From Eubacteriales bacterium (GTDB lineage: Bacteria > Bacillota > Clostridia > Oscillospirales > JAAYXM01), in contig JAZNNQ010000002.1 of NCBI GenBank assembly GCA_045580305.1, positions 1,787 through 65,786 of the forward strand: DNA of 64,000 nucleotides, read 5' to 3'. Shown here one piece after another: positions 6,003 to 23,226 of this stretch (within the stretch, counting starts at the first letter, position 1; each line of letters begins with the position of its first letter). Position numbers and translations under genes: made by a program. The notes below the pieces were generated by a model that was not told the DNA's origin, made no database searches, and was given only the letters and a program-made list of their open reading frames with translations.

Positions 6003-6016
6003 AAGGGGGATATAAT

Positions 6017-6274: not shown

Positions 6275-6310
6275 AAAATCCTCCGAAAACCCGGGGGATT
6301 TTATGTTTAT
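6275..6310 (+). terminator. probable rho-independent terminator closing the WYL-dynamin operon
   Basis: aaaatcctcc-gaaaaccc-gggggatttt stem-loop followed by T-rich sequence. Confidence 0.5.
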
Positions 6311-6336
6311 ACGGACACCTGTATGTCTGACTTGGG

Positions 6337-6345
6337 TGCTATAAT
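6337..6345 (+). promoter_or_regulatory. extended -10 element (TGcTATAAT)
   Basis: tgctataat read directly, about 27 nt upstream of the next ATG. The -35 is weak. Confidence 0.35.
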
Positions 6346-6371
6346 ATGTATGTAAAAGGGAGGTGAAGCGA

Positions 6372-6707
6372 ATGCTGAAATACGAAATCGCAAAAAGCAT
6401 ATACGAAGAAATCAAGGACAAAGTGGCTCATGACACGAGGGAAGGAGTAGAGGGCTTTTATAAGGATTTTTTAGTCAGCGCTTGTGAGTATGCAAAAAAT
6501 CGCATCGACTGGTCCTTTATGAATGGGGAAGAGAAACTGGAGGACGATGCGAGCAGATCAGTAAAGCATGACGCCTTTATGTCAAGACTTAAAGCGGTTT
6601 GCAGAGCGTTACAAATTGACGGAATTGAAGAACTTATGCCGGACAGAAAAACAAAAGGTGACTTTGCCTGTTACATAGCAATGTTCCTGGCATTGGAACA
6701 GCGTTAA
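6372..6707 (+). CDS. hypothetical helical protein
   Basis: ATG at 6372 lies 9 nt after GGGAGG. The track ORF begins at GTG 6363. No recognisable motif. Confidence 0.5.
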   Translation: MLKYEIAKSIYEEIKDKVAHDTREGVEGFYKDFLVSACEYAKNRIDWSFMNGEEKLEDDASRSVKHDAFMSRLKAVCRALQIDGIEELMPDRKTKGDFACYIAMFLALEQR

Positions 6708-6719
6708 GAAAGGAAAAAT

Positions 6720-7316
6720 ATGCCCAAAAACTGGAAGTATATCAAAAAACTGTTGGAGAAGGAGTTTCTCTGCGAAAAACTTAAGGGTCACATAACCTAT
6801 GACCTGACCGATTACAGACCTGCGCCCTGGTATCAGCAGCATTTCATTATGAAATACGATGATGAGGTTCTGCTTTGTGCATCGCAGCCCGACCGCAAGT
6901 GGGACAAGCGCCATCCATATCAGCATACCTATTGGAAGCAGCGGGATGTAATCGCCGAAAAGCTCCGCGAAAAATATGACCTGTCGGAGGAGCAGCTTGC
7001 GGATGTTGTTGAAGATACAATCGAAGAGGTGGACAGAATAAATGCCCATTACGACGGGGTGTTTGGCGTCAAGGACATTGTTGATCTTATCGGCGAGTAT
7101 CTTCATTCGGATATTGAAGCAAGTCTCGGATATCGGCAGGACTACTTCATTAACGCCCTCGCCGTACTTGACAGACGCTGCGGCAAGCGCAGGCTCGAGA
7201 AGCTTGCAAAAACGGACTGTGCGGGATTTCCCGAGTGGTTAAGGCGGATATGCAGGATACGCTTTGAAGCGGAAGGTGTAAGCTACAACAAATATTTTGA
7301 TATTGCAAGAATTTAA
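6720..7316 (+). CDS. hypothetical protein
   Basis: 198 aa, 12-nt gap from the previous gene. No motif I can assign. Confidence 0.5.
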   Translation: MPKNWKYIKKLLEKEFLCEKLKGHITYDLTDYRPAPWYQQHFIMKYDDEVLLCASQPDRKWDKRHPYQHTYWKQRDVIAEKLREKYDLSEEQLADVVEDTIEEVDRINAHYDGVFGVKDIVDLIGEYLHSDIEASLGYRQDYFINALAVLDRRCGKRRLEKLAKTDCAGFPEWLRRICRIRFEAEGVSYNKYFDIARI

Positions 7317-7329
7317 AGGAGTGTATTTT

Positions 7330-7881
7330 ATGTTAGGAAAAATCTTTTCATTACTGGTTGGTTTAGGTATCGGTACCGCGACCGTGAAGCTGATTTCGGA
7401 TAAAATTGCCGATAATGCAAAAAGCAATATTTTATCAATGCTCTACGCGGCAAGAAAACAATACGATGCAGGCGAACTCACCCAGCTGCAGTATGATGAA
7501 ACCCTGAAAATATTACATAAATCCGTAAGCGAAAAGGATAGAAAAGCGATAGACGAGGAGCTGGAAGAGAGGTATTTCATAGCTGAGGATATGTTAAATA
7601 CCCATATCGAGCTATTGGACGAGATCGAGGAGGCGGGAGCTGCCTCGCTGCAGGAATACATTGAAAAGCACCCGAATGATGCCTATATAAACGGCATTGT
7701 GGGCCTGGATGATTATGTATATGAAGAAGGTGAAAAGTCCCCGGAGGAGGCAGAACGCCTTTTGAAAAAATACATATATAATGTCGGAGAAGAGAAAAAA
7801 GAGCTGATAGCAGAGGTAAAGATGCTCGGCGGCGACATTGACAGAGTACAGCGCATATTTGATAAAATAACATTTGAATAA
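7330..7881 (+). CDS. N-terminally membrane-anchored acidic coiled-coil protein
   Basis: ATG 7330 lies 8 nt after AAGGAG. TM MLGKIFSLLVGLGIGTATVKLI followed by Glu-rich helices. Confidence 0.55.
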   Translation: MLGKIFSLLVGLGIGTATVKLISDKIADNAKSNILSMLYAARKQYDAGELTQLQYDETLKILHKSVSEKDRKAIDEELEERYFIAEDMLNTHIELLDEIEEAGAASLQEYIEKHPNDAYINGIVGLDDYVYEEGEKSPEEAERLLKKYIYNVGEEKKELIAEVKMLGGDIDRVQRIFDKITFE

Positions 7882-7888
7882 ATAATAA

Positions 7889-7930
7889 AGGGAGCGCCCG
7901 ACAAATCATCGGGCGCCCCCTTTTGTTTTA
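7889..7930 (+). terminator. rho-independent terminator
   Basis: GC-rich stem gggagcgcccga / tcgggcgccccc followed by ttttgtttt. Confidence 0.85.
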
Positions 7931-7933
7931 TAA

Positions 7934-7962
7934 TTGAAAGATTTTCAAGGATGTGGTATAAT
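7934..7962 (+). promoter_or_regulatory. sigma-A type promoter (TTGAAA-17 nt-TATAAT with TGn)
   Basis: ttgaaa 7934-7939, tgg-tataat 7954-7962, about 55 nt upstream of the first TIR gene. Confidence 0.6.
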
Positions 7963-8015
7963 TCATTTATATAGTCTGCCTGCATTTATTACGAAGAATT
8001 TTAAGGAGATAATTT

Positions 8016-11000
8016 ATGGCATATGATATTTTTATATCCTATAAGGAAAGCGACGGCGCGCAATATGCAGAAAAGTTGAAAAAAGGATTGACAGGCAAAG
8101 GGTATAAATCTGTTTATTTTAACAAAACTGATAAGGACGAAGAAGGAAGTTTTATTACGAGACTTGAAAACGCGATCAAAACTTGTAAAGTTTTTATCTT
8201 TGTGTTGAGCGAAAACGCTAAACAATCTATATTAAATAAAACTGCAGAGAAGGGATCAAAAGAGTTTGATTATGTTTGTTGGGAACTTAGCAGGGCGCGT
8301 GAGTATAGTAAGCATGTGCTGATTTTAAACACAGGCTGTTCTTTTGATCCGTACACCGATAAATATAAATATGATGATATGAAGGATATCGAAATATATA
8401 CAGGAAGAGACTGCAAATCATCTTTGCTTGAAGCGCAGACATTTGAAATGGATAAGATACTTGATGAGCAAGGGGATTTGCTGAAAAGTGCGGGCGTTGA
8501 CATTTCTTTGCGAATGACACTTCGCAGGGTAATTTATGGAGTTTTATCTCTTAAATACAAAGCAAAGAATCCAGCTGGTAATTATGTTGATAAGGAATGT
8601 ATATTCAATAAACAGGCGTTGGAGGCATTGTGTGAATACATAACAAAAGATAACAGTATTACTACAGAAATAGAAAACTGTGCAACAGCGGAAAAATTAA
8701 CTGAATATATGAATAATACCAATCATGAAATGCTACAGGGATTTTGTGAACACTTTGAAATGGAGCCGGGCGGAAAAGAGCAAAAAGCAATTAATATCAA
8801 AATTAAAGACATTGCTATGTGTAAGTTGTATGAAATGGATTGTTGGGAGGTACTCGAGTATTTATATAATTCATATCTTATGATGAATTTTCACGAAGAC
8901 TATGCTTCTATAAGAAAGTTTTATTTAAACAAAACAATAAGTGATTACATTCTTGCGCTTGCTTGGAACAGATATTTTATTAAAAATAAAGATAAAAGAC
9001 GGGAACTTGTTTACAAAATTATTCCCGAACTTATAAGAACCCACAATCATGCGCAGAGATATTTGTTTGCTTTGATAGAAAAGGGAAGATTTGAAAGCGG
9101 GGATGAATGGCTTTTTTGCGATATTGGCGAAGAACACTCGAGCCAGATAAAAATTTTGTTTGGTGAATACTATCGGGATGTTTTTAATACCGATATGGCC
9201 AGATCAACATTTACAGAACGGCTTTTTATGTGGTTTAATCGTAATAAAGATAGTTTTGTTGATTTCTGTTTACAATTAATAAAAAAGTATAAATGCAGTG
9301 ATGCGGAAATATGGAATTTTTTGATTGTAAAATGTGATACGCTGGCAAATAAAAACAGTCTGGAGATTTTAAAAGGATATTTTTCAGAGTATGTAAAACA
9401 AAAAAACTATAAAGTTATCTTTAGAATGATTGAACAAGGGTTAAATAAATTTGTTTTTTTTAATGGTAACCAAGAAAAAGACCAAAAGTTATTTGACTTG
9501 TTATATGGGGCAACAACGAATAGAGAAGTTGTTGAAAAATATGGTCACGGATTAGCGAAAGCATTTTATACATTTTGGAAAAATGATCAGCATACAGAAG
9601 AAATCAAACAAATTACATATGAAAAACACCTCGATAAGATTGTTTCATTTAAAAATCTGTACAATATAGTTGAAGGAATTACCCTTGAAAACCCCGGTAT
9701 TCCCAAGAAAAAGTTTGAAGAAATTCTTCGAGAAACCGTAAACGAGTCGGACGATAAAATTTTAGAGGACAAACAATTTTTGTATGTATTAAATAACATA
9801 TGGGTTACAGACCAAAATGCAGATCTTTACAACAGGGCCGTGAGTAGATTGCTTGATGTATGTACATACTTAAACAGATATTATGGATTTACGGTACTTC
9901 TGTTTGTAAGATATGGAAGAAAAAGCTTTAATGAAGCAAACAGAAAAAGATTATTTGAATGCATAAAAGATTTTGCAGATAAATATGGAGCTGATGTAAA
10001 ACTTGAAGATAAACATTACGATAAAATGTTTAAAATTCTTGAGAATCATTATTTTGACGATATAAGAACAGATTTCAAAATGAAGGTGTTCGACAATGAA
10101 GGAGTAGCACCGGAAACTAAATTGAATATCTTTAACCTTTGGTACGATGTCGGGTTAAAAGAACGACTTAAAGAGAAAATAAAAGAAAATACCGACGAAA
10201 ACAACGAGACACAAAAGGCTTTTAAAATATTGTTTAAAGCCAAAAATAAGAGATGGAAAAATTTACAGGGCTGGAAGGCTGTCCATCTGTATCCTCTCAT
10301 TGAAGAACTTCTTGATTTTGAGAATTTTGTTGAGCTGAAGCCAGATATTCAGAAAAATTTAATACACAATGTAAAAACAAAGAAAGAGTTTTATCCGAAA
10401 ATCAAAGCGCTGTTAGATTCGTTTAAAGTGAATGAGTATGCATGGAATAGCTTAAGCGCTTCCGTAAAAATTGCATTTGTTATGCATATCAATAAAATCA
10501 TTGAAAAGTTTGAAGAAATAGATTTCATTAACTGCTTTGCGGAAAGTGTTATCGAGGATGTAGCATCCATGCGTAAGCGGCGCGGCGAAGTTGAAACGGA
10601 ATATGGAATCAGAGAAGAAACATTAATGTATCATATGATTTTGTTGTATCGAAAAAAACCATGGAAAACAGCAAGATTGTGTGCTGCGGCACAAGTAAAA
10701 TGGTATGGTCAACTTAAATATGAAGATGAAAAGGATGACTACAACAAGAAGAATATGCTCTTTGAACGCCGCGAGTTGTTTAAAACGGCAGTGTCAAATC
10801 CTTGCATCAAGGACTTGACCTGTTATTTAGCGAGAGCGAACTATTCTGTTGTGCGTCAAAATTCATCTGAAATAGCTAACGAGCCGGATGTTTTGAAAGA
10901 TTTTACAACGCTCTTCAGAAACATAATCGGAGGAAGGATTCCGCTGTGGTTTGGCGCGGAAGTGGCAGCGCCGATAAAAACCAAAATGCAGTGGATAGAA

Positions 11001-11591
11001 AATATTGATTTTGAAAGTGTTGTTAATGACTTCAAAAAACGCGATAGCGATCAAGGAAAGTCGTTGGAGGATCAAATACTTGATGCAGCCCAAAAAGGTA
11101 GAGACAATTTTGAAGAAAAGGCTGTTGATTTCGAGGAAGAAGCCGAGAAAATTATAGTATGGAAAAATTCAGAGTGTGATGAAAAGATATATGTTCTAAC
11201 ACGAAAAAGGCTTTTTGCAAGATATTTTGACAACAGCATATGGTATGAAGGGCTGAAGTTTAATGCCTTTCTGTTTATACCACAGATGTGCGAAGAGGTG
11301 TCTTTTGTTTCAACAAGAGATGTATTTGATGTTCGCGTGGAAATAGAGACGGTTAGAAAAGCAATAGAAGAAAAATTCAAATACGCTCTCGTTGAATTTG
11401 ATCCCGCAAAACCCAAATTTGACCGGTTTGTTAAAGGTTGTAGAATTGATAAAACTGTCCAAGAACCAATTAATCAGTTCTATAACGCATATTTGAATTA
11501 TTTAAAACTGGGAGCAATAAAACCTGAAATTGCTGAAGCATTTTCAGACTATGTTAGGCATATGAAACGCACAATTGAAAATATGAAATAG
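8016..11591 (+). CDS. TIR-domain protein with ~1050-aa helical C-terminal region of unknown function
   Basis: 1191 aa. N-terminus MAYDIFISYKESDG..VFIFVLS..DYVCWELSRA is a TIR signature that includes the conserved Glu. I found no Walker A motif. RBS AAGGAG. Confidence 0.75.
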   Translation: MAYDIFISYKESDGAQYAEKLKKGLTGKGYKSVYFNKTDKDEEGSFITRLENAIKTCKVFIFVLSENAKQSILNKTAEKGSKEFDYVCWELSRAREYSKHVLILNTGCSFDPYTDKYKYDDMKDIEIYTGRDCKSSLLEAQTFEMDKILDEQGDLLKSAGVDISLRMTLRRVIYGVLSLKYKAKNPAGNYVDKECIFNKQALEALCEYITKDNSITTEIENCATAEKLTEYMNNTNHEMLQGFCEHFEMEPGGKEQKAINIKIKDIAMCKLYEMDCWEVLEYLYNSYLMMNFHEDYASIRKFYLNKTISDYILALAWNRYFIKNKDKRRELVYKIIPELIRTHNHAQRYLFALIEKGRFESGDEWLFCDIGEEHSSQIKILFGEYYRDVFNTDMARSTFTERLFMWFNRNKDSFVDFCLQLIKKYKCSDAEIWNFLIVKCDTLANKNSLEILKGYFSEYVKQKNYKVIFRMIEQGLNKFVFFNGNQEKDQKLFDLLYGATTNREVVEKYGHGLAKAFYTFWKNDQHTEEIKQITYEKHLDKIVSFKNLYNIVEGITLENPGIPKKKFEEILRETVNESDDKILEDKQFLYVLNNIWVTDQNADLYNRAVSRLLDVCTYLNRYYGFTVLLFVRYGRKSFNEANRKRLFECIKDFADKYGADVKLEDKHYDKMFKILENHYFDDIRTDFKMKVFDNEGVAPETKLNIFNLWYDVGLKERLKEKIKENTDENNETQKAFKILFKAKNKRWKNLQGWKAVHLYPLIEELLDFENFVELKPDIQKNLIHNVKTKKEFYPKIKALLDSFKVNEYAWNSLSASVKIAFVMHINKIIEKFEEIDFINCFAESVIEDVASMRKRRGEVETEYGIREETLMYHMILLYRKKPWKTARLCAAAQVKWYGQLKYEDEKDDYNKKNMLFERRELFKTAVSNPCIKDLTCYLARANYSVVRQNSSEIANEPDVLKDFTTLFRNIIGGRIPLWFGAEVAAPIKTKMQWIENIDFESVVNDFKKRDSDQGKSLEDQILDAAQKGRDNFEEKAVDFEEEAEKIIVWKNSECDEKIYVLTRKRLFARYFDNSIWYEGLKFNAFLFIPQMCEEVSFVSTRDVFDVRVEIETVRKAIEEKFKYALVEFDPAKPKFDRFVKGCRIDKTVQEPINQFYNAYLNYLKLGAIKPEIAEAFSDYVRHMKRTIENMK

Positions 11592-11665
11592 TTTTGTCAT
11601 CTAAATTGTGCACTAATTCTATAATGAACTCAATATATGATCGTATATATTGAGTGGAGGGTACT

Positions 11666-12577
11666 ATGTCAAAATATGCAGTTAGTGATGAAGGTATAAA
11701 AGCTCTTAAAATAACAGCATCTAATGTTTTAAATGCCGTTGAACGGATATTGAATGCTACAAACTCTATAGAATCTGTTGCTGACGAGCATGTTGAAACT
11801 TTAGGACCACACTATGCTTCGTTAGTCGCTGCAATCACAGAGATACGCGAAGCGCAAAGACAAGCAGTTCAACCTGCATATGACATATCCGAAACATTGA
11901 ATGATATTGCCGATGCCTACCAAGATATAATAGATGATGATAAAATTCTTGCAGGCAACAGCGGAACATCTGCAGCAGGTGGTTTGCAGGGCGGAGGAAG
12001 CGACGGCAGTAACAAAGGTGGCAAAGTTGCGTCGTTTTTTGGGAAGATATTTGGCAGCACCGGCGCTTCAGGAAGCCGGTTTGGAGAGTTTAATGTGGAC
12101 TCAAACGGGTTTGTAAAGGGTAATGGATATGACTGTTTTATAAATGACTGGAATAGTTACGGGAAAGTGGAATTTGAAACAGACACGAAAAGTTATTCCG
12201 GGAAAAATGTTACTGAAACGATTGACCCCGGATTGATAGCGGGATTTCGGGTAAGAGAATATGACATCAAGAACCCGGGAACATTTTGGAGCCAACATCA
12301 AACGGGAGGCACTGCGGAGTCGTTTAAAGAAGTGGCTTCGCATATCCCGGAGGTAAAGAGTGAACTGGCTAAAGGCCGCTCTTTGGTTGATTTGGAGAAC
12401 GATCCGGTATTGGGCCCGTGTGCTTCAGTTTATTTTGATCCTGAGAATATGGTGAAAGTAATAAAGTGCGAAGGTTACTATGAATTCCAAGGCAATGGGC
12501 GCCATAGGATTCTTGCGGCAAGAGCCGCGGGGTATGATATTCCGGTGAAGATTGTCGGCAGCCGCAAAAGAAAATAA
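11666..12577 (+). CDS. helical N-domain / Gly-rich linker / ParB-Srx-like C-domain protein (polymorphic-toxin-like architecture)
   Basis: ATG 11666 follows GGAGGG. About 95 aa of helix, then the linker GNSGTSAAGGLQGGGSDGSNKGG, then C-terminal YYEFQGNGRHRILAARAAGYDIPVKIV (ParB/sulfiredoxin-type GxxRxxA motif). Confidence 0.45.
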   Translation: MSKYAVSDEGIKALKITASNVLNAVERILNATNSIESVADEHVETLGPHYASLVAAITEIREAQRQAVQPAYDISETLNDIADAYQDIIDDDKILAGNSGTSAAGGLQGGGSDGSNKGGKVASFFGKIFGSTGASGSRFGEFNVDSNGFVKGNGYDCFINDWNSYGKVEFETDTKSYSGKNVTETIDPGLIAGFRVREYDIKNPGTFWSQHQTGGTAESFKEVASHIPEVKSELAKGRSLVDLENDPVLGPCASVYFDPENMVKVIKCEGYYEFQGNGRHRILAARAAGYDIPVKIVGSRKRK

Positions 12578-12596
12578 ATCGCAAAAAGAAGACACA

Positions 12597-12816
12597 ATGG
12601 ACGAAACAAATAACGATGATATAAATTCTTGAGGTTATTCGCGATATAGAAAAATTTGATTTTGTTATATTTGGTGAGATTCTTATATCATATTGCATTG
12701 CCTACGAAAAATCGCAATTCAACGGTTCTTGTTTCAAAGAGTACATCTATCCACCGACAGCAACGGAGTTTCTCATTGAGGAGAGACAAATGAAGGAAAA
12801 GAGCTTTTGTCCCTGA
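12597..12816 (+). pseudogene. possible frameshifted small ORF (candidate cognate/immunity gene remnant)
   Basis: ATG 12597 gives 11 codons and then TGA. The +1 frame stays open for 61 more codons (EVIRDIEKFDFVIFGEILISYCIAYEKSQFNG..) with no start codon of its own. Confidence 0.2.
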
Positions 12817-12860
12817 CCAGACATAAAGTTTGTCTAATTATTCAAAAAAGGAGAAAATAT

Positions 12861-15800
12861 ATGAATACAAAAGAAGTAACTCCCTATATCTTCATATCAT
12901 ATGCACATGAAGATGCAAATATTGCAAAACGCATCACCGAGTATCTGCAAAATGAAGGTTTTGAAGTTTGGATAGACTATAATAATATTCGCGCAGGAGA
13001 AAAATTCAACGGTGAAATTGCCAAAGCAATTATTGATTCATCGCTACTTATAGCAGTAGTTTCAAATGTATATATATCAAAAGATAAAGATTATTGCACA
13101 AAAGAAATCACATACGCACATAACAGGCAAAAAAATTATATGCCCGTTTACATTGAAAAAGTAAAAGTTCCTATTGGGTGCGAACTGGATTTTGTTTTTC
13201 ATAATGCTTCTCAAGTAGGATTTAATATGAGTCTGGAAAACGACGATGATTTTAATGCGCTTTGTCATTCGATTACAAATTCTGAGTATATGGATTATCT
13301 AAAAGAGTATATGCAAGGCGACACGCCATTGCCTATGCCATATATTAAACCGGACCGATTCGATAAAATTAAGAAATATTATCAGAAGATTGCAAATGGC
13401 AATTATTATTTACCGTCCATCGAAACAGAACTGTTTCCTCCATTTAAAATTGATTCAAAAATAGAGCGGTCTGGTAACAACAATGGACTTTTGTTAGAAA
13501 AAATCATTCAGGATTATAAGACGAATTTTCTGATAATTGGCGATGGAGGTTCCGGAAAAACTGTAGCATTAAGAAGTATATTTAGAAACTTTATAGATAA
13601 TGAAATACCAGCATTGTACATTCCGCTAAATAAAATTCAATTTTCAGAGAAAGTAACCATTCAATCTTATTTAGAAGATGAGATGCAATTAACATGGCAT
13701 TCTCTAAAGATATACGGGAAGCGCGATTCAAGCAACAGTCCATTACGATTATTATTCGACGGATTAAATGAGATTCCGGGGGATCGAAGAGCAGTATTAA
13801 ATCAAATCAAAGAAATTATGCGGTGGGATAATGTTCAGATTATAATATCTTCAAGAAGTGATTTTAGCAATAATTTAACACGAGACATCATGTTTAAAAC
13901 CATTTATTTACAACCCCTTGAAGAAAACACAGTAAAAGCATTTCTTGAAAAAAAGAGTATGCCTGCTAACCTTAATAAGAAAATGACTTCGCTGTTACGT
14001 AATCCATTGATGCTCATGTTATACATAAATACTGATATGAGCATGTATGAGCCTTTGTCGAAATATTCAAATTACTACAAAATAAATATTTCCAGTTCCC
14101 CGTCTTCCGAAGAACAAATCATGTGGAATTTCTTACAAAGCCAGCTATATCGTGTTGATGAGAGCTTTTCAAGTCAGTTTGTTTGTGATGCATTTGTTAT
14201 AATTGAATTTCTTTTGCCATTATTGGCGAACCATATGATAATAAACGGTAAAAGCAACATCGACGAAAACGAACTTGATGATTTCTTAGATTCCTTGACA
14301 TCACGAGATGACTATAAATATTACAATAATAGGTTGAGGAAGATTGAGCGAACATTAGATATTGAGGAATACAAATACAAGGGGAACAATTTGAATAGGG
14401 TTTTATTTAACAAATTATCCTTAATGGTTGAGGCTGAAACGGGCGAGGAAGATGACTCGAAAAGGTATGAGTTCTTTCATCAAAGTTTCAGAGATTTTTT
14501 TGCAGCTATGTTTGTTGCAAAAAAGCTTGAAATGATAGCAAATGAAAAAACAACCAACTTTGAAGAAATATCAAAAATCCCGTATGAGATTGAGATTATC
14601 AAATATGTTGCGGAAATTTCTATGGAAAAACAAGCAAAGCCGGTTTGGACAGCAGAAGGATTAACTTATCCCGGAAAAAACGAACCTCTCTCTGCTTCCT
14701 CTTTTTCTGATGCTGAAAAATCGTTAAATGCGTATAGAGGTCTATTTGATGAAAGTGCTCAAAACATTGTTTGTAATGTTTACAAGATAATGTCGATAGG
14801 TAGAGACAGACATTTGTCAAATTGTGATTTTTCATCATTAGATTTAAGAAAATGCAATCTTAAGGGTGGGTACTATTCTGATTGGTATTGTGATAATGAG
14901 TATCCGTCATCTTTTGAAAATTCGTACATAGACCTGGATTGTTTTATATCACAAGGACATCAAGCTACAATAAAATCAATCTGTGAAGGAAATGGAGGAG
15001 TATTTACTGCAGATACTGAAGGTACAGTTAAGCATTGGCGGTTCGATGAAAATATACCTATATTTACTGTAACAACACCGGAAGGAGCTATTATAAGTAT
15101 AGATTATTCTGAAAAATCAAAGCAATTGGCTATTCTAAAACAACATGCCGTATATTTATATGATTTAGAAACAGATGTAGTGTCTATGATTGCATCTGCA
15201 AAAAGTACATATCGCTACATTAGGTTTAATACAGACGATCAAATAGAAGTAACATATGACACATCACCTTTAACATGGACGAACTTGTCCGGAGTAATAA
15301 CGACTGATTATTTGTCGTTAGATATTCCTTGCGGGTGCTCTGCCATTGATTCAAAACATACGCAGATACTGAGAAGTTATCTCTACGGCACTGTTCATAG
15401 GTATGACCCCTGTGATAATTCAATTATCGGTGAACTAAATATGTTAGAAAAAGCAGAGGGAAATGGAATTACCGACATCAAGTTTAGTAATGACGATTCA
15501 AGATTTCTGGTTGGCTTCGGGAACAATGTCTTTGAGTTTGATAGTCATTCATTGGAACAGCTACACAAGCTGGAATTCAAATCTTTAGTTAATTCTGTTA
15601 TGTACACAGCGGACGATAAAATTGTGGTTGCAACAGGTGTAAATATAGTTGTGTTAAATAAAGATTTTTCTTATTACAAAGAGTTTGCAGGTGAGTCTCT
15701 TCCTAATATAATTAAAAAATTGTTTAAGGATGATGGAAAACTTTATTTTCTCGACACGACTGGAACAATCAAGCTTATTTCAGACAAGATAACCGTAAGT

Positions 15801-16205
15801 AAAACCAGAAAACCTTGGTTTAAACCCCGCACAATAGCCTTTGGACATGATGGACTTGACAGACACTCTACCAAGATGTTTGCGATAACAAGTGCACCTA
15901 AATTAATTGGTAAAGAAAAGAAAGTATGCATTGGATATGATTATGAGAAGAACGCTATTTTCGATTTAGTCAAGGATTATGAGATTTTCAATGTTTTCCA
16001 TGGCAGGGATAACGATGAATATGAAATCCATATACTTGCAAATAAGATAGTTGCTATAAATAAAAAAACCAGCGAACGAGTACTGTTTGTTAATTACAAG
16101 GGAATTACCATTCATGGGTGTAACTTTAAAAACATTTTAGGTAGCATAACCGAAGATGAAGGCATACATTTACTTGTGCAGAATGGAGGAATTGTTAATG
16201 AATAA
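12861..16205 (+). CDS. TIR-NACHT(STAND NTPase)-WD40-like repeat protein
   Basis: ATG 12861 follows AAGGAG. TIR signature YIFISYAHED..DYCTKEITYA. Walker A IIGDGGSGKTVAL and Walker B LRLLFDGLNEIP. C-terminal WD-like units such as GHQATIKSI..DTEGTVKHWRF. Confidence 0.8.
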   Translation: MNTKEVTPYIFISYAHEDANIAKRITEYLQNEGFEVWIDYNNIRAGEKFNGEIAKAIIDSSLLIAVVSNVYISKDKDYCTKEITYAHNRQKNYMPVYIEKVKVPIGCELDFVFHNASQVGFNMSLENDDDFNALCHSITNSEYMDYLKEYMQGDTPLPMPYIKPDRFDKIKKYYQKIANGNYYLPSIETELFPPFKIDSKIERSGNNNGLLLEKIIQDYKTNFLIIGDGGSGKTVALRSIFRNFIDNEIPALYIPLNKIQFSEKVTIQSYLEDEMQLTWHSLKIYGKRDSSNSPLRLLFDGLNEIPGDRRAVLNQIKEIMRWDNVQIIISSRSDFSNNLTRDIMFKTIYLQPLEENTVKAFLEKKSMPANLNKKMTSLLRNPLMLMLYINTDMSMYEPLSKYSNYYKINISSSPSSEEQIMWNFLQSQLYRVDESFSSQFVCDAFVIIEFLLPLLANHMIINGKSNIDENELDDFLDSLTSRDDYKYYNNRLRKIERTLDIEEYKYKGNNLNRVLFNKLSLMVEAETGEEDDSKRYEFFHQSFRDFFAAMFVAKKLEMIANEKTTNFEEISKIPYEIEIIKYVAEISMEKQAKPVWTAEGLTYPGKNEPLSASSFSDAEKSLNAYRGLFDESAQNIVCNVYKIMSIGRDRHLSNCDFSSLDLRKCNLKGGYYSDWYCDNEYPSSFENSYIDLDCFISQGHQATIKSICEGNGGVFTADTEGTVKHWRFDENIPIFTVTTPEGAIISIDYSEKSKQLAILKQHAVYLYDLETDVVSMIASAKSTYRYIRFNTDDQIEVTYDTSPLTWTNLSGVITTDYLSLDIPCGCSAIDSKHTQILRSYLYGTVHRYDPCDNSIIGELNMLEKAEGNGITDIKFSNDDSRFLVGFGNNVFEFDSHSLEQLHKLEFKSLVNSVMYTADDKIVVATGVNIVVLNKDFSYYKEFAGESLPNIIKKLFKDDGKLYFLDTTGTIKLISDKITVSKTRKPWFKPRTIAFGHDGLDRHSTKMFAITSAPKLIGKEKKVCIGYDYEKNAIFDLVKDYEIFNVFHGRDNDEYEIHILANKIVAINKKTSERVLFVNYKGITIHGCNFKNILGSITEDEGIHLLVQNGGIVNE

Positions 16206-18045
16206 TAAGATAGAAGATTTAATAATAGAATTTTACGATTTTTCAATTTGTAAATGTAAAGCAAGTGTTAAGGTTTGCGAATTAGATATTTTTATACCGG
16301 ACTTTGTTGTAATGAATGCTTCAAATACAGTGGAAGTATATATGCCCGCTGCCTATAAAACTACATGGCCGTTTAAAGAAATAACATGGCACGAGATTCG
16401 GCATGCAGTTCTTGACGAATTCAAACAAAAATATCAATCCTTTGGAAGTTTTAATGTTGAGTTTGAGGCTATTGATAACAATGTATATCTTGCCAAGGTG
16501 GATTATGATTTCTTAGATATACACTTGGATGGGTGCAAAGTCAAAGTAAAAAACAAGCGCCCGTTTATAAATATGCCTGAAAATTTTAAAAATATATGGC
16601 CTTATCATTCCATCGCATGGTTGGATGTTCGCAATGCAATGGTAGAACATTTTAAGAAGCAAAGGAAAACTCAAAAAGATGTATTAAATTATATACCAAT
16701 GGTAAGTGTTCACGATGTATCTAACGACGGAACGGCGTTGTTTGATATAGAAATACCGGAATTGCAATATGAGCTTACAGATGGGGCCATATACTATATA
16801 AGTAATGATAATATCAATATTAATTTGCCGAGCGACTTTCCTGTTAACCCGGAAAATGGATTGACTCGAAAAGGTGTATTAAAAACTATACGCGAAGAAT
16901 ATTTAAAGCAAATTAATGGTATTGATATAACACCCTATTCCAAATCCGAAACACAATGCGAACTCGAATCGAACAAAAACAAATTCGGGAGAATAATGGA
17001 TGCTGATGGTAGGCCGTTCATGTTTGTTCCAAACACAGAATTAAGACCGATCGGAAAAATTTTTGATACGAATAAATTTCAAACAGCAAAAAAACTCCTT
17101 AAAGCATTAAGTAGCAATGACATAGGCATATTCGAAATTGATACATTATCTATAATTGAGAAATTTCGATATGTTAATAGTAATATGATCATAGATTTAT
17201 TTGCCAGCGGATATATTTCTCGAGGTTGGAGGAATATTAATAAAAATAAACTTGCTGGTATCTTTGACCGATTAGCAAAACATAATCTTGTAAATATATG
17301 CAAATTTGTGCGTGTAGATGAATCTTATCGAAACAATGTTACCGGCGAAGAAATTTACCGCATATTTTCGTTAGCTGAGACTGGAAATCGACTATTAAGT
17401 GAACTTGGTAGGGTTCACCACTATAATCCTTTTGATGTTTACCAAAACGGTAATTTTGTAAAAGCAATTCTAGCTGCAAATCAGTGGCTCGTTTATTGGC
17501 TAAGTTCTTATCCGGAGGAAATTAAGGACAAATATGACACCGCTAAAGTTATCCATGCTTTAGGTGCAGAGAAGAGTGGAGCAAAGATTTACTCTATGAT
17601 TACTTGCAATGATATAACTTTAATTGGAGAACCGTTAAGAAGAACATACGAATTTGATGAGCCTCAAAATGCGATTGAAATACAAGAGAAACTTAAACGC
17701 CTGTTCTACCTCATAGACTTTAAAGGTGATATATATACAAATAGCGGGTATAAGCCGGTTGAATACAATCTTGGAAATGATTCAATAATTTGCTACATAT
17801 GCGAAGATGACGACCATATTAAGGAAATGTGGCATATTGTAAAGTCCATAATAATGGATAATCCAAGCAAAAAAGTCTGGTTTACAACGGATGCGCGCTT
17901 ATTCAACTACTCTTGTGAAAACGAACGCTTTTTTATGTTTGACAAAGATGATCAAATGAACAGAGTGGATCTGTTTAATGAAATGAAACTTGGTAAAGAA
18001 CGCGCATATGATTTCATAGATCAGACAAGCACCGAATCGTTTTAA
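16198..18045 (+). CDS. protein with three tandem SpoVG-like repeats and a replication-relaxation-like winged-helix C-terminal half
   Basis: ATG 16198 lies 7 nt after GGAGGA and overlaps the upstream stop by 8 nt. There are three modules of about 80 aa, each ending ..MP..W/P..I.W..VR.A.L.EF/YK.Q. The C-terminal half contains IIEKFRYVNSNMIIDLF..IFDRLAKHNLV..IYRIFSLAETG. Confidence 0.45.
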   Translation: MNNKIEDLIIEFYDFSICKCKASVKVCELDIFIPDFVVMNASNTVEVYMPAAYKTTWPFKEITWHEIRHAVLDEFKQKYQSFGSFNVEFEAIDNNVYLAKVDYDFLDIHLDGCKVKVKNKRPFINMPENFKNIWPYHSIAWLDVRNAMVEHFKKQRKTQKDVLNYIPMVSVHDVSNDGTALFDIEIPELQYELTDGAIYYISNDNININLPSDFPVNPENGLTRKGVLKTIREEYLKQINGIDITPYSKSETQCELESNKNKFGRIMDADGRPFMFVPNTELRPIGKIFDTNKFQTAKKLLKALSSNDIGIFEIDTLSIIEKFRYVNSNMIIDLFASGYISRGWRNINKNKLAGIFDRLAKHNLVNICKFVRVDESYRNNVTGEEIYRIFSLAETGNRLLSELGRVHHYNPFDVYQNGNFVKAILAANQWLVYWLSSYPEEIKDKYDTAKVIHALGAEKSGAKIYSMITCNDITLIGEPLRRTYEFDEPQNAIEIQEKLKRLFYLIDFKGDIYTNSGYKPVEYNLGNDSIICYICEDDDHIKEMWHIVKSIIMDNPSKKVWFTTDARLFNYSCENERFFMFDKDDQMNRVDLFNEMKLGKERAYDFIDQTSTESF

Positions 18046-18282
18046 TATACACAAGCGACTATTGGTTAGGGATTTTAAAGAAAACGAAAATGCTGACAGG
18101 AGTTGAATGAATTGAGATGCACGATAAATGTAATAAAATTGGCAGATTGCTGATGGCATCAATAATAACTGCGAAGAAAGAACGAAAAATCAGTGATCTT
18201 TAAATCATGTGCTGATTTTACAATGTATCCAATCTAAGATGAATTTGGGCAACTTTAAATTTGACCTGAAAGAAGGATTATC

Positions 18283-20718
18283 ATGCATGAAGAGGAAAGA
18301 ATAGATGAAAGACACAGATATTTTGCTTTTGTAGCTTATACTCGATATAAAAGAAAAGATTTCAAATATGCAGAAAAAATATACAAAGAGCTTCAAAAGC
18401 ATAGATTACCCGCAAAGATTGCAAAGAAATATCCTGAAAAGCATAAAAGAACGAAGCCTTTATTTTTAGATCATTTTGATATGCCACCCGAAAATTACAA
18501 TAGGATTGATCCGCTTGCGTTAAAAGAGTCAAAGAAATTAATAGTAGTATGCTCAACCAGACTGGTCGAACATGAAACTACTGCCGTAATTAAGGAAATT
18601 CAAGACTTCTTGGATTCGGGACACGACTGGGATGATATTATTCCGGTTTTAGTGGAAAAACCGAATAAAAAAGAAGACCGTGACGCGCGTGTGCAAAGGT
18701 GCTTTCCTAAAATATTAAGAGAGTTAAATGCGAAAAATAACGGAGAATATAATAAGATAGCAGTTGATTTCTTCAAACCTTCCGGAAAAAAGGATGTGGA
18801 GAGTGTCATATACAAGATGATTTCATACATTCAAGGAATCAACTTGACGGAACTCGAAAGATTTGAGCGTAAGAGAAAAAGAATGCGAATGATTTTTGGC
18901 TCACTTTTATGTGCCGTTCTTATCCTGCTTGGTGTGCTTTTAATGGGGTGGACAAGCGAAAAGATCAATATAAAAAACGGAATACAAGAGGCAATCAATG
19001 TGTCCGAAAATAACACATATAATGCCATAACAAGTCTATTTGATATTGAAAAGCGCCAAAATCGTTTTTTATTGAATAACGAAAGAGTTTATAGTGCTCT
19101 TGAAGCGGCTGCCGATTACAAAGCGGGACAATGTTTGAGAAAAAAGCAATTTTATTTTAACAATATTGAAAGCATCGAGGTTGTTAATAAAGTGGGCAAC
19201 CTTTTTGGCGTCAAGACAACAGATCGATATTATGTTATAGATGTAAATGATTGTGAAATAAAGTATGAAATATCTGCCAATAACTTTTGGTATGAGAAAG
19301 AAAATAAAAAATATCAGATGGTTCTGAATAACGACGCGACAGGAGATTATGAACTTCAAAAAGTATGGTGTGACAATGATAAGGTATACCTTTCCATCGC
19401 ACCCCCAAATGATTACAATGCTGAAAAACTTGAAGTAGTTGTAGATATAGCCGACAATAGTTCATACCGCGCAGACATTATATGGGGCGATCAATCTTAT
19501 GCCAAAAAAGATGATGGGATTCAAATGTTGGGAACGGTTGTGTCAGTTCCTGATAAAGATGGAAATTTCACATCGCTGGTGCATGAATCTAATGTTGGCA
19601 CTTATGCGGTAAGGGCTGATTTGAATGTAATATGGTCTATGGATAAAACGGGTTGTGTGTATATTTGGTCAATGAGGAATGGATATTCTTTGGCCGATAA
19701 AATGTATGATAAGAACAATAGATATGTGTGGGCAACATCTACCGATGGATTATTGTTCAGAATCGATTTGGAAAGCGGCGAATTAACGAAGATAATAAAA
19801 AATAAAGAAATTTCTTTTATTGGACAAGATGATACGCAGATTTTTGTGGCAATAAAGAACGAAAATCTGGAATATCCGGCTATTTGCATGTGTGACAAAA
19901 AAACCGGTGTTGTAAAGCAAATAAACCGTCTCCCTGAAATAAATGAAAAAAATAAACATCTTATGACACCGCAATCAAATTCCCTGGTTGGAAGGGAATG
20001 TGTAATTGTAGCCCGAAGCCTTATCGATCACATTAATGGAAATCATCTGTCGGAGGCCTTGTTTGACAAGAACAATGCAATTAAATTTATGGATGTTCTT
20101 GAGGAAAATACTCTCGCTGATATTGAGGTATATTTCGATATGCAAAGCTCAGATGCATTTAATTCGATGAAAACCACTATCATATCAAACAGACAAACAG
20201 TGTTAATGCCAAGAATACACACCTTCAACGGTATGCTCACAGAGGAGCTATATAAAATCAATGATGGTGAATGGCGACCGATATATACAGATAGCGGTAT
20301 TTTAACTGGTATTGATATTCCGAAGGATTTAGATTTTGATAAAGAACATATTTTGCATATAAAAGCGGTTGATGGAAGTAAAAATGAAACGACCAAGTCG
20401 TTTAGATTTACTATGGAAAACCGGGAAGTTCAGTGGCGGATTGAAAGCGGCGGAAGACAACTTGCTTCCAAAGAAGTTACTGAGATAGAAACTCAGGATA
20501 TTGTAATTGAGTGTAAAGAAAATGCGGCCAATTCCGTAAAAGAAATTACATATGCTTTTGATAACGATCCGGAAGTATTTTGTGTGCAAGGCGAACGGGC
20601 AGAGATCAAAATACCTAAAAAATATCTCGATGGAAATGAACATAAGATATTGATATATTTTGTTTCTGAAAAGGTTACAACGAAGTATTATGTATATTCA
20701 TTTAAGTATGTAAAATGA
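18283..20718 (+). CDS. TIR-TM-extracytoplasmic beta-propeller/Ig-like protein
   Basis: 811 aa. TIR-like YFAFVAYTR..KPLFLD..KKLIVVCS..VIKEIQDF..IIPVLVEKP. KRKRMR plus TM IFGSLLCAVLILLGVLLMGW at aa ~203-223. WD-like strands and a beta-rich C-terminus. Confidence 0.65.
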   Translation: MHEEERIDERHRYFAFVAYTRYKRKDFKYAEKIYKELQKHRLPAKIAKKYPEKHKRTKPLFLDHFDMPPENYNRIDPLALKESKKLIVVCSTRLVEHETTAVIKEIQDFLDSGHDWDDIIPVLVEKPNKKEDRDARVQRCFPKILRELNAKNNGEYNKIAVDFFKPSGKKDVESVIYKMISYIQGINLTELERFERKRKRMRMIFGSLLCAVLILLGVLLMGWTSEKINIKNGIQEAINVSENNTYNAITSLFDIEKRQNRFLLNNERVYSALEAAADYKAGQCLRKKQFYFNNIESIEVVNKVGNLFGVKTTDRYYVIDVNDCEIKYEISANNFWYEKENKKYQMVLNNDATGDYELQKVWCDNDKVYLSIAPPNDYNAEKLEVVVDIADNSSYRADIIWGDQSYAKKDDGIQMLGTVVSVPDKDGNFTSLVHESNVGTYAVRADLNVIWSMDKTGCVYIWSMRNGYSLADKMYDKNNRYVWATSTDGLLFRIDLESGELTKIIKNKEISFIGQDDTQIFVAIKNENLEYPAICMCDKKTGVVKQINRLPEINEKNKHLMTPQSNSLVGRECVIVARSLIDHINGNHLSEALFDKNNAIKFMDVLEENTLADIEVYFDMQSSDAFNSMKTTIISNRQTVLMPRIHTFNGMLTEELYKINDGEWRPIYTDSGILTGIDIPKDLDFDKEHILHIKAVDGSKNETTKSFRFTMENREVQWRIESGGRQLASKEVTEIETQDIVIECKENAANSVKEITYAFDNDPEVFCVQGERAEIKIPKKYLDGNEHKILIYFVSEKVTTKYYVYSFKYVK

Positions 20719-20802
20719 TGAGCATATTAACCTAAAGGTGCGCTTGCGGGGCGTATGACTTGATTCTGCCGCAAGGAACACAAATTTTTTGGAGTGAAAG
20801 CA

Positions 20803-23226
20803 ATGAGTGAGCAATACACACACGACATATTTATAAGTTTCAGCTTTGCCGATCAGCAGGTGGCTGAGGAGATTGTCAACATACTGAACACCAAATACGG
20901 TTTTTCCTGCTGGATATGTACCCGTGACATTGACGGCGGCCGACGCTACAAGGCACTTATTCCCGATGCAATTGACGGCGCCCGCGCAGTGGTGTTCATT
21001 CAGAGTGAGAAGGCGCTGGCCTCCCGTGAGATACCCAAGGAAATCGGTATGGCATTTGACGCTGATAAGGTCATCATTCCCTTTAAACTTGACCAGGCGC
21101 AGCCTCAGGGTGACTTGCGCTACGATCTGTATGGTGTTGAGTACATAGATGCTACCGTTCCCACCAAGGAGCAGAGGATATACGAGCTGGCAAAGGCGGT
21201 CTCAAAAGCGATAGCGAAGCCTCTGCCCGATGATGCCGCGCCCTTGACGGGTGAACGGATTATTTCCACCCCGTCAGTTATTCCGAAGAATGTATTTTGT
21301 GGCAGAGAGTGTGTGCTGCAGACGCTTTGTGATAAGTTCGCCGAGGGTGAACGGGTGGTTTTCCTGCAGGGCATCGGAGGTATCGGAAAGACCGAGATTG
21401 CAAAGCAATACGCTAAAAGAAACAGAACAAAATATGATACAATCGTCTATGCCACCTACGGCGGAAGCATTGAAGATATTATAAATGGTGATGAGCCGTT
21501 TACACTTGAACCGGAACTGCCGCGGCTTCTTATGTCCGACGGAACCCGGGAGGATGACCGGGCATATTTTGCGAGAAAACTACGCAAGATACAGCAGATT
21601 ACCGATGAGAAAACCCTTATTATCATCGATAATTTTGACACAAAGAATGACCCGGCATTGACCGAACTTTTACAAGGCAGGTACCACCTGCTTATCACCA
21701 CCAGATGCGACTATGCCCGAATGTATCCCACTATTAAGGTCGGCCCCATTGATTCTATGGACAACCTGCTTGATGTGTTTATGGAAAATTACCGTGGCTT
21801 TGAGGTAGAGCGTGAGGATGAGGCGCTTAACGAGCTTATAGAGCTTGTAAACCGCCACACCTACACCATAGAGCTTCTGGCACAGCATATGGAAAACAGC
21901 GGCCAGACCGCAGAGGAGATGCTGGCCGCACTCAAAAAAGAGGGCATAATGTCCCTCAATGAAGAGGTTGGCTCTGCGGGCAATAAAACCCGCGTAGCAT
22001 ACGAAAACCTTATAAAAATGTTCAAGGTCTTTTCTCTGACTGATGAGGAGCAGCGTATATTGCGCTTGCTGTCCCTGATGCCGCTCGGCGGTGTGAATGT
22101 GCGGGACTTTAAGTTCTGGGCGAACCTTTCATCACTTAAAATATTAAACGATCTTGATTGCCGCGGCTGGATAATGCGAAATACCGGCGGTATCGCATTG
22201 CATCCTATTGTACGCGATGTTGTGCGTCACGAGCTGCCGGTAACCGAGGAAAATACGGGTGAGTTTTTACAACAATTCACCGAAACCATAGCAGAGAGCA
22301 AGACATGGCGCTACCCGATGGCGCAAAAAGAGGTCTATGCCGCAATTGCAGCGGAACTGCTGGATGTGTTCGACACCATCAATGAGGACACGCTGTCATT
22401 ATACCAGAAGGCGGAAACGCTGTTCAGCTTCTCGGTGCGTCCCGAGGCGGCGGTGGAGCTTGCTGCGCGTCTGTATGAGTATAATTGTGCTGCCGTCGGC
22501 AAGGAGAGCTTCCGTGCGGGTTATGCTGCTTTCAAGGCCGGTTGGGCGTATAAATTCAACCTCTGTCTTGAAAATGCGCTGGAAAACGCGGAAAAATGGC
22601 TTACTCTGGGCGGCGAGATTATGGGCGGACTTAAGCTCGATACATCCTTTGAAAATGCGACATACGGCCAGCTTTTGGGCAATCTTTCCCGCGTGTGCAT
22701 CCTGCTGTCCGAGGAGAAGTACGATAAGGAAAGACTGCTTTTGGCAAAGGCATATGCCGGTGACTCGGTTGATGTAAGTGAAGAGTGGCTTTTTCCGGGC
22801 GACCCACAGTATCCCAAAGTGGCAGGCGCGTATATGCAGATGGCAGATGCCTGCATCGCCCTTGAGGAATATGATCGCGCTAAGGAGTTGATTGATGCAT
22901 CCTACGACATCCTGTTTGCCCTTTTTGGCGACAATGATCCCGACACACTCCACGCGCTGGCGCGAAAGGCGACTATTCTATACCATACAGGCAAATATGA
23001 GGACGCTATCGCTACCGCATCACGGAGTATGGAAGGCTACGGCCATTTTTATGGCGAGCTTCACGGTGAGCGATATGAACAGCTTATCATTCTTTTGAAA
23101 TCCCACCTTGCTATGGGAAACACCGAAAAAGTGAAAGAACTGAAGGCGTATGCGCTGGAAATCGGCGGAAAGATATTTGCCGAAAATTCCGAACAGTTGC
23201 GGTACTTAAATGAATTAAAGGACTGA
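20803..23226 (+). CDS. TIR-NB-ARC(STAND)-TPR protein
   Basis: ATG 20803. TIR signature HDIFISFSFADQ..REIPKEIGMA. P-loop VVFLQGIGGIGKTEIAKQYA and Walker B LIIIDNFD. C-terminal TPR-like helical repeats. GC matches the flanking chromosome. Confidence 0.8.
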   Translation: MSEQYTHDIFISFSFADQQVAEEIVNILNTKYGFSCWICTRDIDGGRRYKALIPDAIDGARAVVFIQSEKALASREIPKEIGMAFDADKVIIPFKLDQAQPQGDLRYDLYGVEYIDATVPTKEQRIYELAKAVSKAIAKPLPDDAAPLTGERIISTPSVIPKNVFCGRECVLQTLCDKFAEGERVVFLQGIGGIGKTEIAKQYAKRNRTKYDTIVYATYGGSIEDIINGDEPFTLEPELPRLLMSDGTREDDRAYFARKLRKIQQITDEKTLIIIDNFDTKNDPALTELLQGRYHLLITTRCDYARMYPTIKVGPIDSMDNLLDVFMENYRGFEVEREDEALNELIELVNRHTYTIELLAQHMENSGQTAEEMLAALKKEGIMSLNEEVGSAGNKTRVAYENLIKMFKVFSLTDEEQRILRLLSLMPLGGVNVRDFKFWANLSSLKILNDLDCRGWIMRNTGGIALHPIVRDVVRHELPVTEENTGEFLQQFTETIAESKTWRYPMAQKEVYAAIAAELLDVFDTINEDTLSLYQKAETLFSFSVRPEAAVELAARLYEYNCAAVGKESFRAGYAAFKAGWAYKFNLCLENALENAEKWLTLGGEIMGGLKLDTSFENATYGQLLGNLSRVCILLSEEKYDKERLLLAKAYAGDSVDVSEEWLFPGDPQYPKVAGAYMQMADACIALEEYDRAKELIDASYDILFALFGDNDPDTLHALARKATILYHTGKYEDAIATASRSMEGYGHFYGELHGERYEQLIILLKSHLAMGNTEKVKELKAYALEIGGKIFAENSEQLRYLNELKD

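Follow-up and report, generated by a model that had tools for sequence, protein, structure and literature searches.

The 64,000-nt window analysed here (positions 1,787 to 65,786 of contig JAZNNQ010000002.1, assembly GCA_045580305.1, Eubacteriales bacterium) carries a sharply bounded AT-rich block of five genes, three of which encode large Toll/interleukin-1 receptor (TIR) domain proteins. The block is likely the AT-rich core of a defence island of ~22.5 kb and a stack of four modules, named A to D, with independent distributions, being neither one system nor a demonstrable single insertion. The island is chromosomal and lies between a permease gene and an adenine deaminase gene in an uncultured Clostridia lineage. 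Only the two genes of module C travel together: a signal transduction ATPase with numerous domains (STAND) of the TIR-NACHT-WD40-like type, C1, and a 615-aa partner protein, C2. Judged from their sequences and arrangement, they are very likely linked in function as a two-gene NLR-like module. This pair is the part of the island worth attention; the island is otherwise an ordinary, if striking, pile-up.

The compositional boundaries of the block are sharp. The GC content is 34.7% in the block versus 47.2% in the remaining window, and 1-kb windows gave the same means with standard deviations of 2.5 inside and 3.6 outside. The sliding profile has a trough at ~7.9-20.8 kb; within 21000-64000, every other 12.9-kb window has at least 46.1% GC. 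Maximum-likelihood change points are located at 7921, inside the T-run of the terminator 3' of the upstream gene, and at 20737, 19 nt past the stop codon of the last block gene, with a hairpin and a T-run beyond. The first-pass annotation of this DNA had described abrupt edges at 7930 and 20790, within ~10-50 nt of the change points, and its six GC values for 60-nt lines were reproduced exactly (21.7, 26.7 and 30.0% inside; 45.0, 55.0 and 48.3% outside). Third codon positions have a GC content (GC3) of 30-32% in four of the block genes, 38% in orf307, the single gene of module B, and 51-61% in host genes. The relative synonymous codon usage (RSCU) correlates among block genes (r = 0.56-0.85; 0.58-0.85 among modules A, C and D), with a correlation of ~0 between block and host genes.

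All five genes are on the plus strand, as annotated before, with corrected starts. The starts adopted in and beside the block are 11666, 12861, 16198 and 20803. The alternative starts GTG 11654, TTG 12807, ATG 16156 and GTG 20794 were rejected, being disfavoured by homologue alignments and the positions of ribosome-binding sites; the alignments of C1 homologues start at residue 19 of the open reading frame (ORF) opened by the TTG. The best promoter-like site of the region lies directly 5' of the first block gene, and intergenic gaps of 283 and 237 nt are present between modules. Direct or inverted repeats of at least 10 nt were not found at the block edges, where shared 8-mers were near the chance expectation. 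The window has no tRNA gene, and integrase and transposase families had no match among the window ORFs scanned. The reported lack of integrase, tRNA and flanking repeats thus stands.

Homologues of modules A and D occur elsewhere in the company of unrelated genes. A homologue of the module A protein with 77% identity (P0012) is encoded alone between genes for a GH31 glycosidase and an iron-containing alcohol dehydrogenase on three contigs (L017-L019), and one with 47% identity (P0013) is also a lone gene, with GDSL-lipase and Rnf genes downstream of it (L020-L021). The DNA homology of the window to L017, which comes from another Clostridia genome, is 81.6% and confined to 7999-11625, from 17 nt 5' of the start to 34 nt past the stop of gene A. 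Module D homologues with 58% and 53% identity adjoin genes for a 1036-aa unannotated protein and DUF3232 in one case and for ComEC and HolA in the other, and their loci hold none of the other block genes. The single insertion or unit of ~12.8 kb proposed in the first-pass annotation is not supported by this distribution. Save for C1 and C2, co-occurrence follows the pile-up of singletons that the annotation had named as the counter-case. When the window proteins were compared by tblastn with each of the retrieved loci, the sole other co-occurrence was a TIR-NB-ARC-TPR gene in the metagenomic contig L016 (389-2749). It is 35% identical to that of the window and lies directly upstream of a TIR-NACHT and partner pair, which may be coincidental.

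These gene families bring their low GC with them, as horizontally circulating, unameliorated cargo. The module A homologues are AT-rich relative to their own flanks (32.6 vs 44.4% and 31.4 vs 40.7% GC). The C pair has a lower GC content than its flanks in the contexts read, by only 2-3 points in two loci and by 0 in L014, and reaches 50% in one host of 53% GC. Because homologues are AT-rich in other hosts too, uniform composition cannot show a single event.

The block proteins had one occurrence each in a collection of 15 billion proteins. A megablast search of 7000-22000 against plasmids gave no match, IMG/VR viral contigs had no relative of the C2 family profile (A1) or of the four other block proteins, and PHROGs gave TIR-type matches only. 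The adenine deaminase at the right border had its best match, of 64%, in an Oscillospiraceae metagenome-assembled genome (searching one genome per GTDB species) and one of 40% at best in JGI metagenomes. Exact look-ups of the adenine deaminase, the TIR-NACHT ORF and the entry P0001 found nothing on record.

The conservation of the C pair stands out. A C2 homologue is located directly 3' of an effector-NACHT-WD40 gene in all five distinct contexts read (L009, L013, L014, L015 and L016). In the window, the stop and start regions of C1 and C2 overlap by 8 nt, ATGAATAA; the overlaps in the five other loci are 8, 11, 11, 1 and 17 nt. Both proteins diverge in parallel across these loci, with 49/52, 46/50, 42/30, 35/41 and 28/32% identity. 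No two loci have the same flanks around the pair. In L014, a Pkinase domain replaces the TIR head of the STAND protein and the partner is kept. In a set of 37 long proteins related to the partner core, Pfam identified fusions with TIR_2 in 10, NACHT in 6 and Roc-COR in 3. In the 1602-aa protein P0094, a TIR domain and a NACHT-propeller region with homology to C1 (E 1e-29) precede a C-terminal partner core. The order is inverted in P0112 and P0114, in which the partner core precedes NACHT-pentapeptide or Roc-COR modules. A functional link between C1 and C2 is very likely in view of their constant adjacency, the translational coupling, the parallel divergence and the recurrent fusions. A 104-aa integrase N-terminal SAM-like fragment is encoded just upstream of the homologous pair in L009 (322-636) and may be the remnant of a mobile element.

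C1 had been described as TIR-NACHT-WD40-like, and this layout was recovered. In the coordinates of the 1132-aa ORF, TIR_2 covers residues 28-122, NACHT 242-382 and matches to beta-propeller families 713-945, the latter two just below the Pfam cut-offs. The Walker A motif reads GDGGSGKT, and NPHP3_N and nSTAND5 also match the NACHT stretch. The NACHT and propeller matches are stronger in C1 homologues, and those of L015 and L016 carry NACHT. None of the curated PADLOC models for NLR, bNACHT or TIR-NLR proteins matched C1 beyond the TIR domain; the PADLOC hits were confined to the TIR part, with mad8 (E 1e-3) in addition.

C2 belongs to a family with a conserved C-terminal half (orf629 family). 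An AlphaFold2 model built with nine homologues (predicted local distance difference test score, pLDDT, 76) has three b-b-b-b-a repeats at residues 8-239, a winged helix at ~297-361 and a C-terminal a/b domain. The motifs EPxRR (478-482), CEDxxH (535-540) and WxTxD (561-565) are invariant. A Foldseek comparison of the repeats with SpoVG (2ia9) gave a probability of 0.99, a TM-score to the target (TMt) of 0.54-0.57 and E 0.11, and homologues of C2 hold true Pfam SpoVG domains (PF04026, E 1e-19 to 6e-42). The C-terminal half had weak Foldseek matches to nucleases of the winged helix-turn-helix (wHTH) plus PD-(D/E)XK type, namely Cdn1, VC1899, Can2, Card1, Nt.BspD6I and McrC. The best viral structural match was Gp146 of Bacillus phage G (E 4e-8, TM-score 0.62). 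Because Foldseek found nothing in the PDB at E <= 0.001, the nuclease fold of C2 is deduced mainly from profile homology.

A profile search of 1.84 billion representatives yielded 167 relatives of C2, 70 of them at E <= 1e-30. Distant stand-alone relatives of ~300 aa match Replic_Relax (PF13814). In the Replic_Relax-type group A5, 8 of 13 members match PF13814, two of which were seen above the cut-off. The hhalign comparison of the C2 family profile A1 with A5 gave a probability of 99.9 and E 6e-34 over residues 271-587, and both profiles have the motifs NQ, ExVRR, CEDxxH and FTxD in common. By these profiles, the C-terminal half of C2 is homologous to the MOBC/Replic_Relax relaxases and was apparently recruited to defence. 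Replic_Relax is equated with the MOBC relaxases (PMC5357655, PMC12857230). It has been placed in the PD-(D/E)XK superfamily, and its members usually occur as fusions with an HTH domain (PMC3424549). In TraX of pAD1, the MOBC prototype, a winged HTH at the N-terminus is combined with an active site like that of restriction endonucleases, and no covalent intermediate with DNA is formed (PMC12857230). The annotation of C2 as a protein with three SpoVG-like repeats and a winged helix was right in these parts and incomplete, as the relaxase-type nuclease fold was missed. Likewise, the claim that the block has no mobility genes holds for integrases and transposases and has to be qualified for the relaxase homology of C2. 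A conjugation context, that is, an origin of transfer (oriT), a coupling protein or a type IV secretion system (T4SS), was found neither among the window ORFs scanned nor in the five related loci.

The domain composition varies within the C2 family. The wHTH-nuclease core is tandemly duplicated in P0006 (L015, 8001-10487), and most SpoVG repeats are missing in P0010. Other N-terminal repeats replace the SpoVG repeats in P0112 and P0114; by eye, they have an S1/OB-like appearance.

In the mechanism proposed for module C, recognition of a phage component by the propeller would be followed by oligomerisation of the NACHT NTPase, whereupon the TIR domain at the N-terminus would fire. The C2 partner would act with the NACHT-WD40 core via protein contact. 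The SpoVG-like repeats and the wHTH predict nucleic-acid binding, and the MOBC-like domain predicts nicking or cleavage. Coupling by protein contact is favoured over activation by a TIR-made nucleotide because the partner survives the exchange of TIR for a kinase and is often covalently fused; C2 is unlikely to be a receptor for such a nucleotide. As for its role, a DNA-nicking or DNA-cleaving co-effector is the leading, still tentative, candidate. A nucleic-acid co-sensor seems rather doubtful, and so, to the same degree, does a regulator or another function.

The NLR-like proteins of bacteria are generally regarded as one-gene systems. The pair may represent an undescribed two-component class of NLR-like immune systems, an assignment close to evenly balanced, in which a domesticated relaxase-type nickase or DNA reader is coupled to a STAND protein by protein contact, the head is exchangeable between TIR and kinase, and NACHT and Roc-COR NTPases acquired the module on several occasions. 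A search of open-access papers and bioRxiv preprints for literature linking SpoVG or Replic_Relax proteins to NACHT/STAND defence found no description of the pair. With this pair, it becomes possible to test whether a STAND receptor acts together with a DNA-directed subunit encoded separately and whether a family of conjugation enzymes was co-opted for immunity.

Four TIR genes with four architectures in 15 kb, as annotated before, were recovered with TIR_2 E values of 1e-10, 2e-21, 1e-4 and 8e-17. All four proteins have kept the conserved TIR glutamate (E90 in module A), and they share nothing outside the TIR domain. The fourth, a TIR-NB-ARC-TPR protein with the P-loop GIGGIGKT, is encoded just outside the block at 49.7% GC and with host-like codon usage (RSCU r = 0.84). 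Each TIR protein would be a self-contained sensor-effector, and the clustered TIR domains would consume or convert NAD+ on triggering. PADLOC models of ThsB matched the TIR domains of the window weakly and over the TIR only (E 5e-7 to 1e-3), and the NCBIfam model of the type III Thoeris protein ThcB4 gave E 4e-10 with 39 bits against a cut-off of 220. A ThsA-type effector (SIR2, Macro or a transmembrane part fused to SLOG) was not found in the block, in agreement with the earlier statement that it has no SIR2, Macro or SLOG effector. A LOG/SLOG-family gene is present outside the block with host-like GC (24942-25523). It was rejected as a Thoeris effector, having host-like GC and passing the housekeeping cut-off of TIGR00730; its synteny with the adenine deaminase gene in distant relatives was uninformative. 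The gene probably serves purine salvage rather than a Thoeris-type system.

The whole 12.8 kb could have arrived in one event from a low-GC donor as a cassette of five genes cooperating as a multi-TIR system. Both edges are sharp, the genes are co-oriented with short gaps and modules A, C and D have similar codon usage; a single strong promoter at the left edge and a hairpin with a T-run at the right edge would suit such a unit. Against it, the homologues of A, C and D each reside in contexts free of the other modules, and the homology to L017 stops 34 nt past gene A. The deviating GC3 of orf307 and the gaps of 283 and 237 nt, which part modules, do not fit a cassette either, and shared composition is not a shared event when the homologues are AT-rich in other hosts. 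A cassette is thus improbable, and the stack of independently distributed modules is preferred.

Two further explanations assign other functions to the proteins. In a Thoeris-like array, the TIR proteins would be ThsB-like sensors and the LOG/SLOG protein or the 615-aa partner would be the shared effector. The weak ThsB and ThcB4 matches and a SLOG-superfamily gene 1.7 kb from the last TIR gene are in its favour. The LOG protein, with its host GC and TIGR00730 match, has no SIR2, Macro or transmembrane effector part. The partner has no recognised nucleotide-sensor domain, is kept when a kinase forms the head and is covalently fused in many relatives, and the TIR proteins of the window have large sensor regions, unlike the short ThsB. 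A Thoeris-like array is very improbable on these grounds. Still less credence, though not by much, is given to C2 as a working MOBC-type relaxase in a degenerate integrative mobilizable element. The homology of its C-terminal half to Replic_Relax/MOBC would explain how the block was acquired, and the integrase fragment next to the pair in L009 points in the same direction. In every context read, however, C2 goes with a STAND gene rather than with genes for conjugation or integration. Fusions join its core to TIR-STAND and Roc-COR proteins, the surroundings of the pair change from locus to locus, and neither an integrase or coupling protein nor an oriT-like repeat array or att repeats were found in the window. 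A relaxase-like partner of a STAND protein is preferred for C2.

Several points weigh against the preferred interpretation of the block and its pair. No sequence from the same species or genus was found. The block may have been transferred once in an already stacked state, which would suit the even codon usage of its modules A, C and D (r = 0.58-0.85). The conservation of the pair was read in five distinct contexts, which are the neighbourhoods covered for a partner family of 167 cluster representatives. In C1, NACHT scored 24.2 bits, below the Pfam cut-off of 26.7, and the beta-propeller families (E 2e-5 to 6e-3) were below their cut-offs as well. C2 itself had no direct Pfam match to SpoVG or to Replic_Relax (PF13814, none at E <= 1). 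Its PD-(D/E)XK domain might be inactive and serve DNA binding only. The mechanism and the anti-phage function of the module are drawn from what is known of the families.

The remaining modules are heterogeneous. For module A, the earlier description as a TIR domain followed by about 1050 aa of helical sequence is retained, with ~1,090 aa beyond the TIR domain. This part had no family match and no Walker A motif or P-loop. Module D had been described as TIR-TM-propeller. The TIR domain and a single transmembrane helix (~200-226) were verified; the propeller signals in the C-terminal region of ~585 aa past the helix are weak (E 0.03). The N-terminal 200 aa and the transmembrane helix align with P0018, a TIR-TM-beta-propeller protein according to Pfam (E 3e-14). 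A basic cluster, RKRKRMR, on the N-terminal side of the helix predicts a cytoplasmic TIR domain and ~585 extracytoplasmic residues, a topology in the style of Toll-like receptors. Modules A and D are two rare TIR architectures without a system-specific model match in PADLOC, Pfam and NCBIfam.

Module B differs from the rest of the block in its composition (44% GC, 38% GC3). Its N-terminus had weak matches below the Pfam cut-offs, to EspC (E 6.5e-4) and WXG100 (E 0.02). A single-sequence AlphaFold2 model contains a confident helical hairpin at residues 12-88; the overall pLDDT is 46 and that of the C-terminal domain below 50. The C-terminus (171 aa) had no match in Pfam (E <= 10), NCBIfam, PADLOC, PHROGs or PDB sequences, and tblastn searches of orf307 against plasmids and phages gave none. 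The previous designation as a ParB/Srx-like toxin was not supported by profiles or PDB sequences; what is left is the likeness of the motif that ends the C-terminal domain, GNGRHRILAARAAG, to GNGRHRxxAA. Module B is possibly a polymorphic-toxin-like protein. An immunity gene was not found directly 3' of orf307, where the 283-nt gap holds short or frameshifted frames only. The stretch 12598-12815 begins with an 11-codon ATG ORF (MDETNNDDINS), followed by a +1-shifted open frame of ~64 codons without a start codon. Together, the two frames resemble a small gene disrupted by a frameshift, which may be the decayed remains of an immunity gene for orf307.

Table 1. Features of the defence island and its right border, in window coordinates.
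Feature	Position	Strand	Description
Defence island	684..23226		~22.5 kb, from WYL/Eleos to TIR-NB-ARC-TPR; AT-rich block as core
WYL-domain regulator (HTH-WYL-WCX)	684..1661	+	First gene of the island; Pfam WYL E 7e-9, WCX; PADLOC WYL E 7e-25
Eleos (dynamin-like) system	1658..5490	+	LeoC 1658-2161, LeoB 2155-3780, LeoA 3799-5490
Four small ORFs	5529..7881	+	157 aa; 114 aa; SF0329-family, 198 aa (Pfam E 3e-27); 194 aa
Bidirectional intrinsic terminator	7887..7923	.	Strong; 17-bp stem with 10 G-C pairs
AT-rich block	7921..20737	+	34.7% GC; read as four stacked modules A-D
Promoter-like site	7934..7962	+	TTGAAA-17-TATAAT, extended -10 TG (TGgTATAAT); 11/12 matches
Module A, TIR-helical protein	8016..11591	+	1191 aa, TIR and ~1,090 aa of helical sequence; Pfam TIR_2 E 1e-10
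Module B (orf307)	11666..12577	+	303 aa; WXG100/EspC-like hairpin, Gly-rich linker, 170-aa C-terminal domain
Module C gene 1 (C1), TIR-NACHT-WD40-like STAND	12861..16205	+	1114 aa; Pfam TIR_2 E 2e-21, NACHT E 3.3e-5
Module C gene 2 (C2), partner (orf629 family)	16198..18045	+	615 aa; three SpoVG-like repeats, wHTH, PD-(D/E)XK-fold domain
Module D, TIR-TM-ectodomain protein	18283..20718	+	Divergent TIR at residues 22-129; Pfam TIR_2 E 1.2e-4 (below cut-off)
TIR-NB-ARC-TPR STAND	20803..23226	+	Last gene of the island; Pfam TIR_2 E 8e-17, TPR_12, AAA_16, NB-ARC
Adenine deaminase	23232..24908	+	Pfam Adenine_deam_C E 5e-61; host-like GC
LOG/SLOG-family protein	24942..25523	+	Pfam Lysine_decarbox E 2e-35; TIGR00730 170 bits vs cut-off 96

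On the left, the window starts with the 3' end of an amino-acid-permease-like gene, which ends near 335 according to the translation of the left end. A complete Eleos system, absent from the first-pass annotation, is located directly upstream of the block and has an intermediate composition (GC3 46-51%; 46-58% for 684-5490, with the WYL regulator included). PADLOC identified its contiguous genes as LeoC (E 3e-41), LeoB (8e-111) and LeoA (3e-179), and Pfam detected DLP_helical (E 5e-54). Of the four small ORFs that follow, the three outside the SF0329 family had no match in family and profile searches. On the right, the adenine deaminase and LOG/SLOG genes (23232-25523) have host-like GC and are probably housekeeping genes. 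They are followed by genes for a peptidyl-prolyl isomerase and a sodium:solute symporter, then pyruvate kinase, MutS2 and other housekeeping genes.

Other features of the window lie farther to the right. A cobalamin riboswitch (Rfam RF00174, 77 bits) was detected at 28547-28751 upstream of a gene for a 742-aa protein with three SLH domains. A small low-GC islet (~37-40% GC) is present at 39.5-41 kb. Within it, a Fic/Doc-family gene (Pfam E 2.5e-15) overlaps an upstream 80-aa ORF at 40142-40758; they are probably a toxin-antitoxin pair. A second low-GC stretch of 1.3 kb (51764-53079, 38-40% GC) between mutS2 and the next gene contains only ORFs of less than 110 aa and had no Rfam match.

Defence islands are commonly AT-rich, integrase-free and assembled from independently moving cassettes. 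In its composition the block is nothing unusual for such an island, of which the window provides a clean, quantified example. Like defence islands and integration hotspots without mobility genes, it has Eleos, four TIR proteins and two STAND proteins packed co-directionally between core genes, an atypical composition and no integrase or tRNA found. It does not differ from these in any essential respect; the GC contrast of 12.5 points and the TIR gene density rank high. The island shares with Thoeris (ThsB and ThsA) the TIR domains with a conserved glutamate and the adjacency of several TIR genes, as in multi-ThsB loci. The block differs from Thoeris in the lack of a detected ThsA-type effector and in the size of its TIR proteins, which have 800-1200 aa and their own sensor regions.

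C2 resembles the MOBC/Replic_Relax proteins (TraX of pAD1, MobC of CloDF13) in the succession of a winged HTH and a PD-(D/E)XK restriction-endonuclease-like domain. Unlike these, it has three N-terminal SpoVG-like repeats, and its family is tied or fused to STAND and Roc-COR NTPases instead of oriT, coupling protein or T4SS genes. The repeats resemble SpoVG (PF04026; 2ia9) in their b-b-b-b-a fold. SpoVG is a stand-alone regulator of ~100 aa, whereas the repeats of C2 are triplicated, highly diverged and part of a 615-aa multidomain protein. Module C as a whole is most similar in kind to the bNACHT and NLR-related proteins (Kibby et al., bioRxiv 10.1101/2022.07.19.500537) and to TIR-NLR and Avs STAND proteins. 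Common to them are the TIR effector, the NACHT NTPase, the WD40-like sensor, the location in a defence island and the presumed logic of oligomerisation on sensing, followed by TIR activation. Module C differs from bNACHT and TIR-NLR proteins by its large, conserved partner, which is translationally coupled and sometimes fused, and by an effector head that swaps with a kinase.

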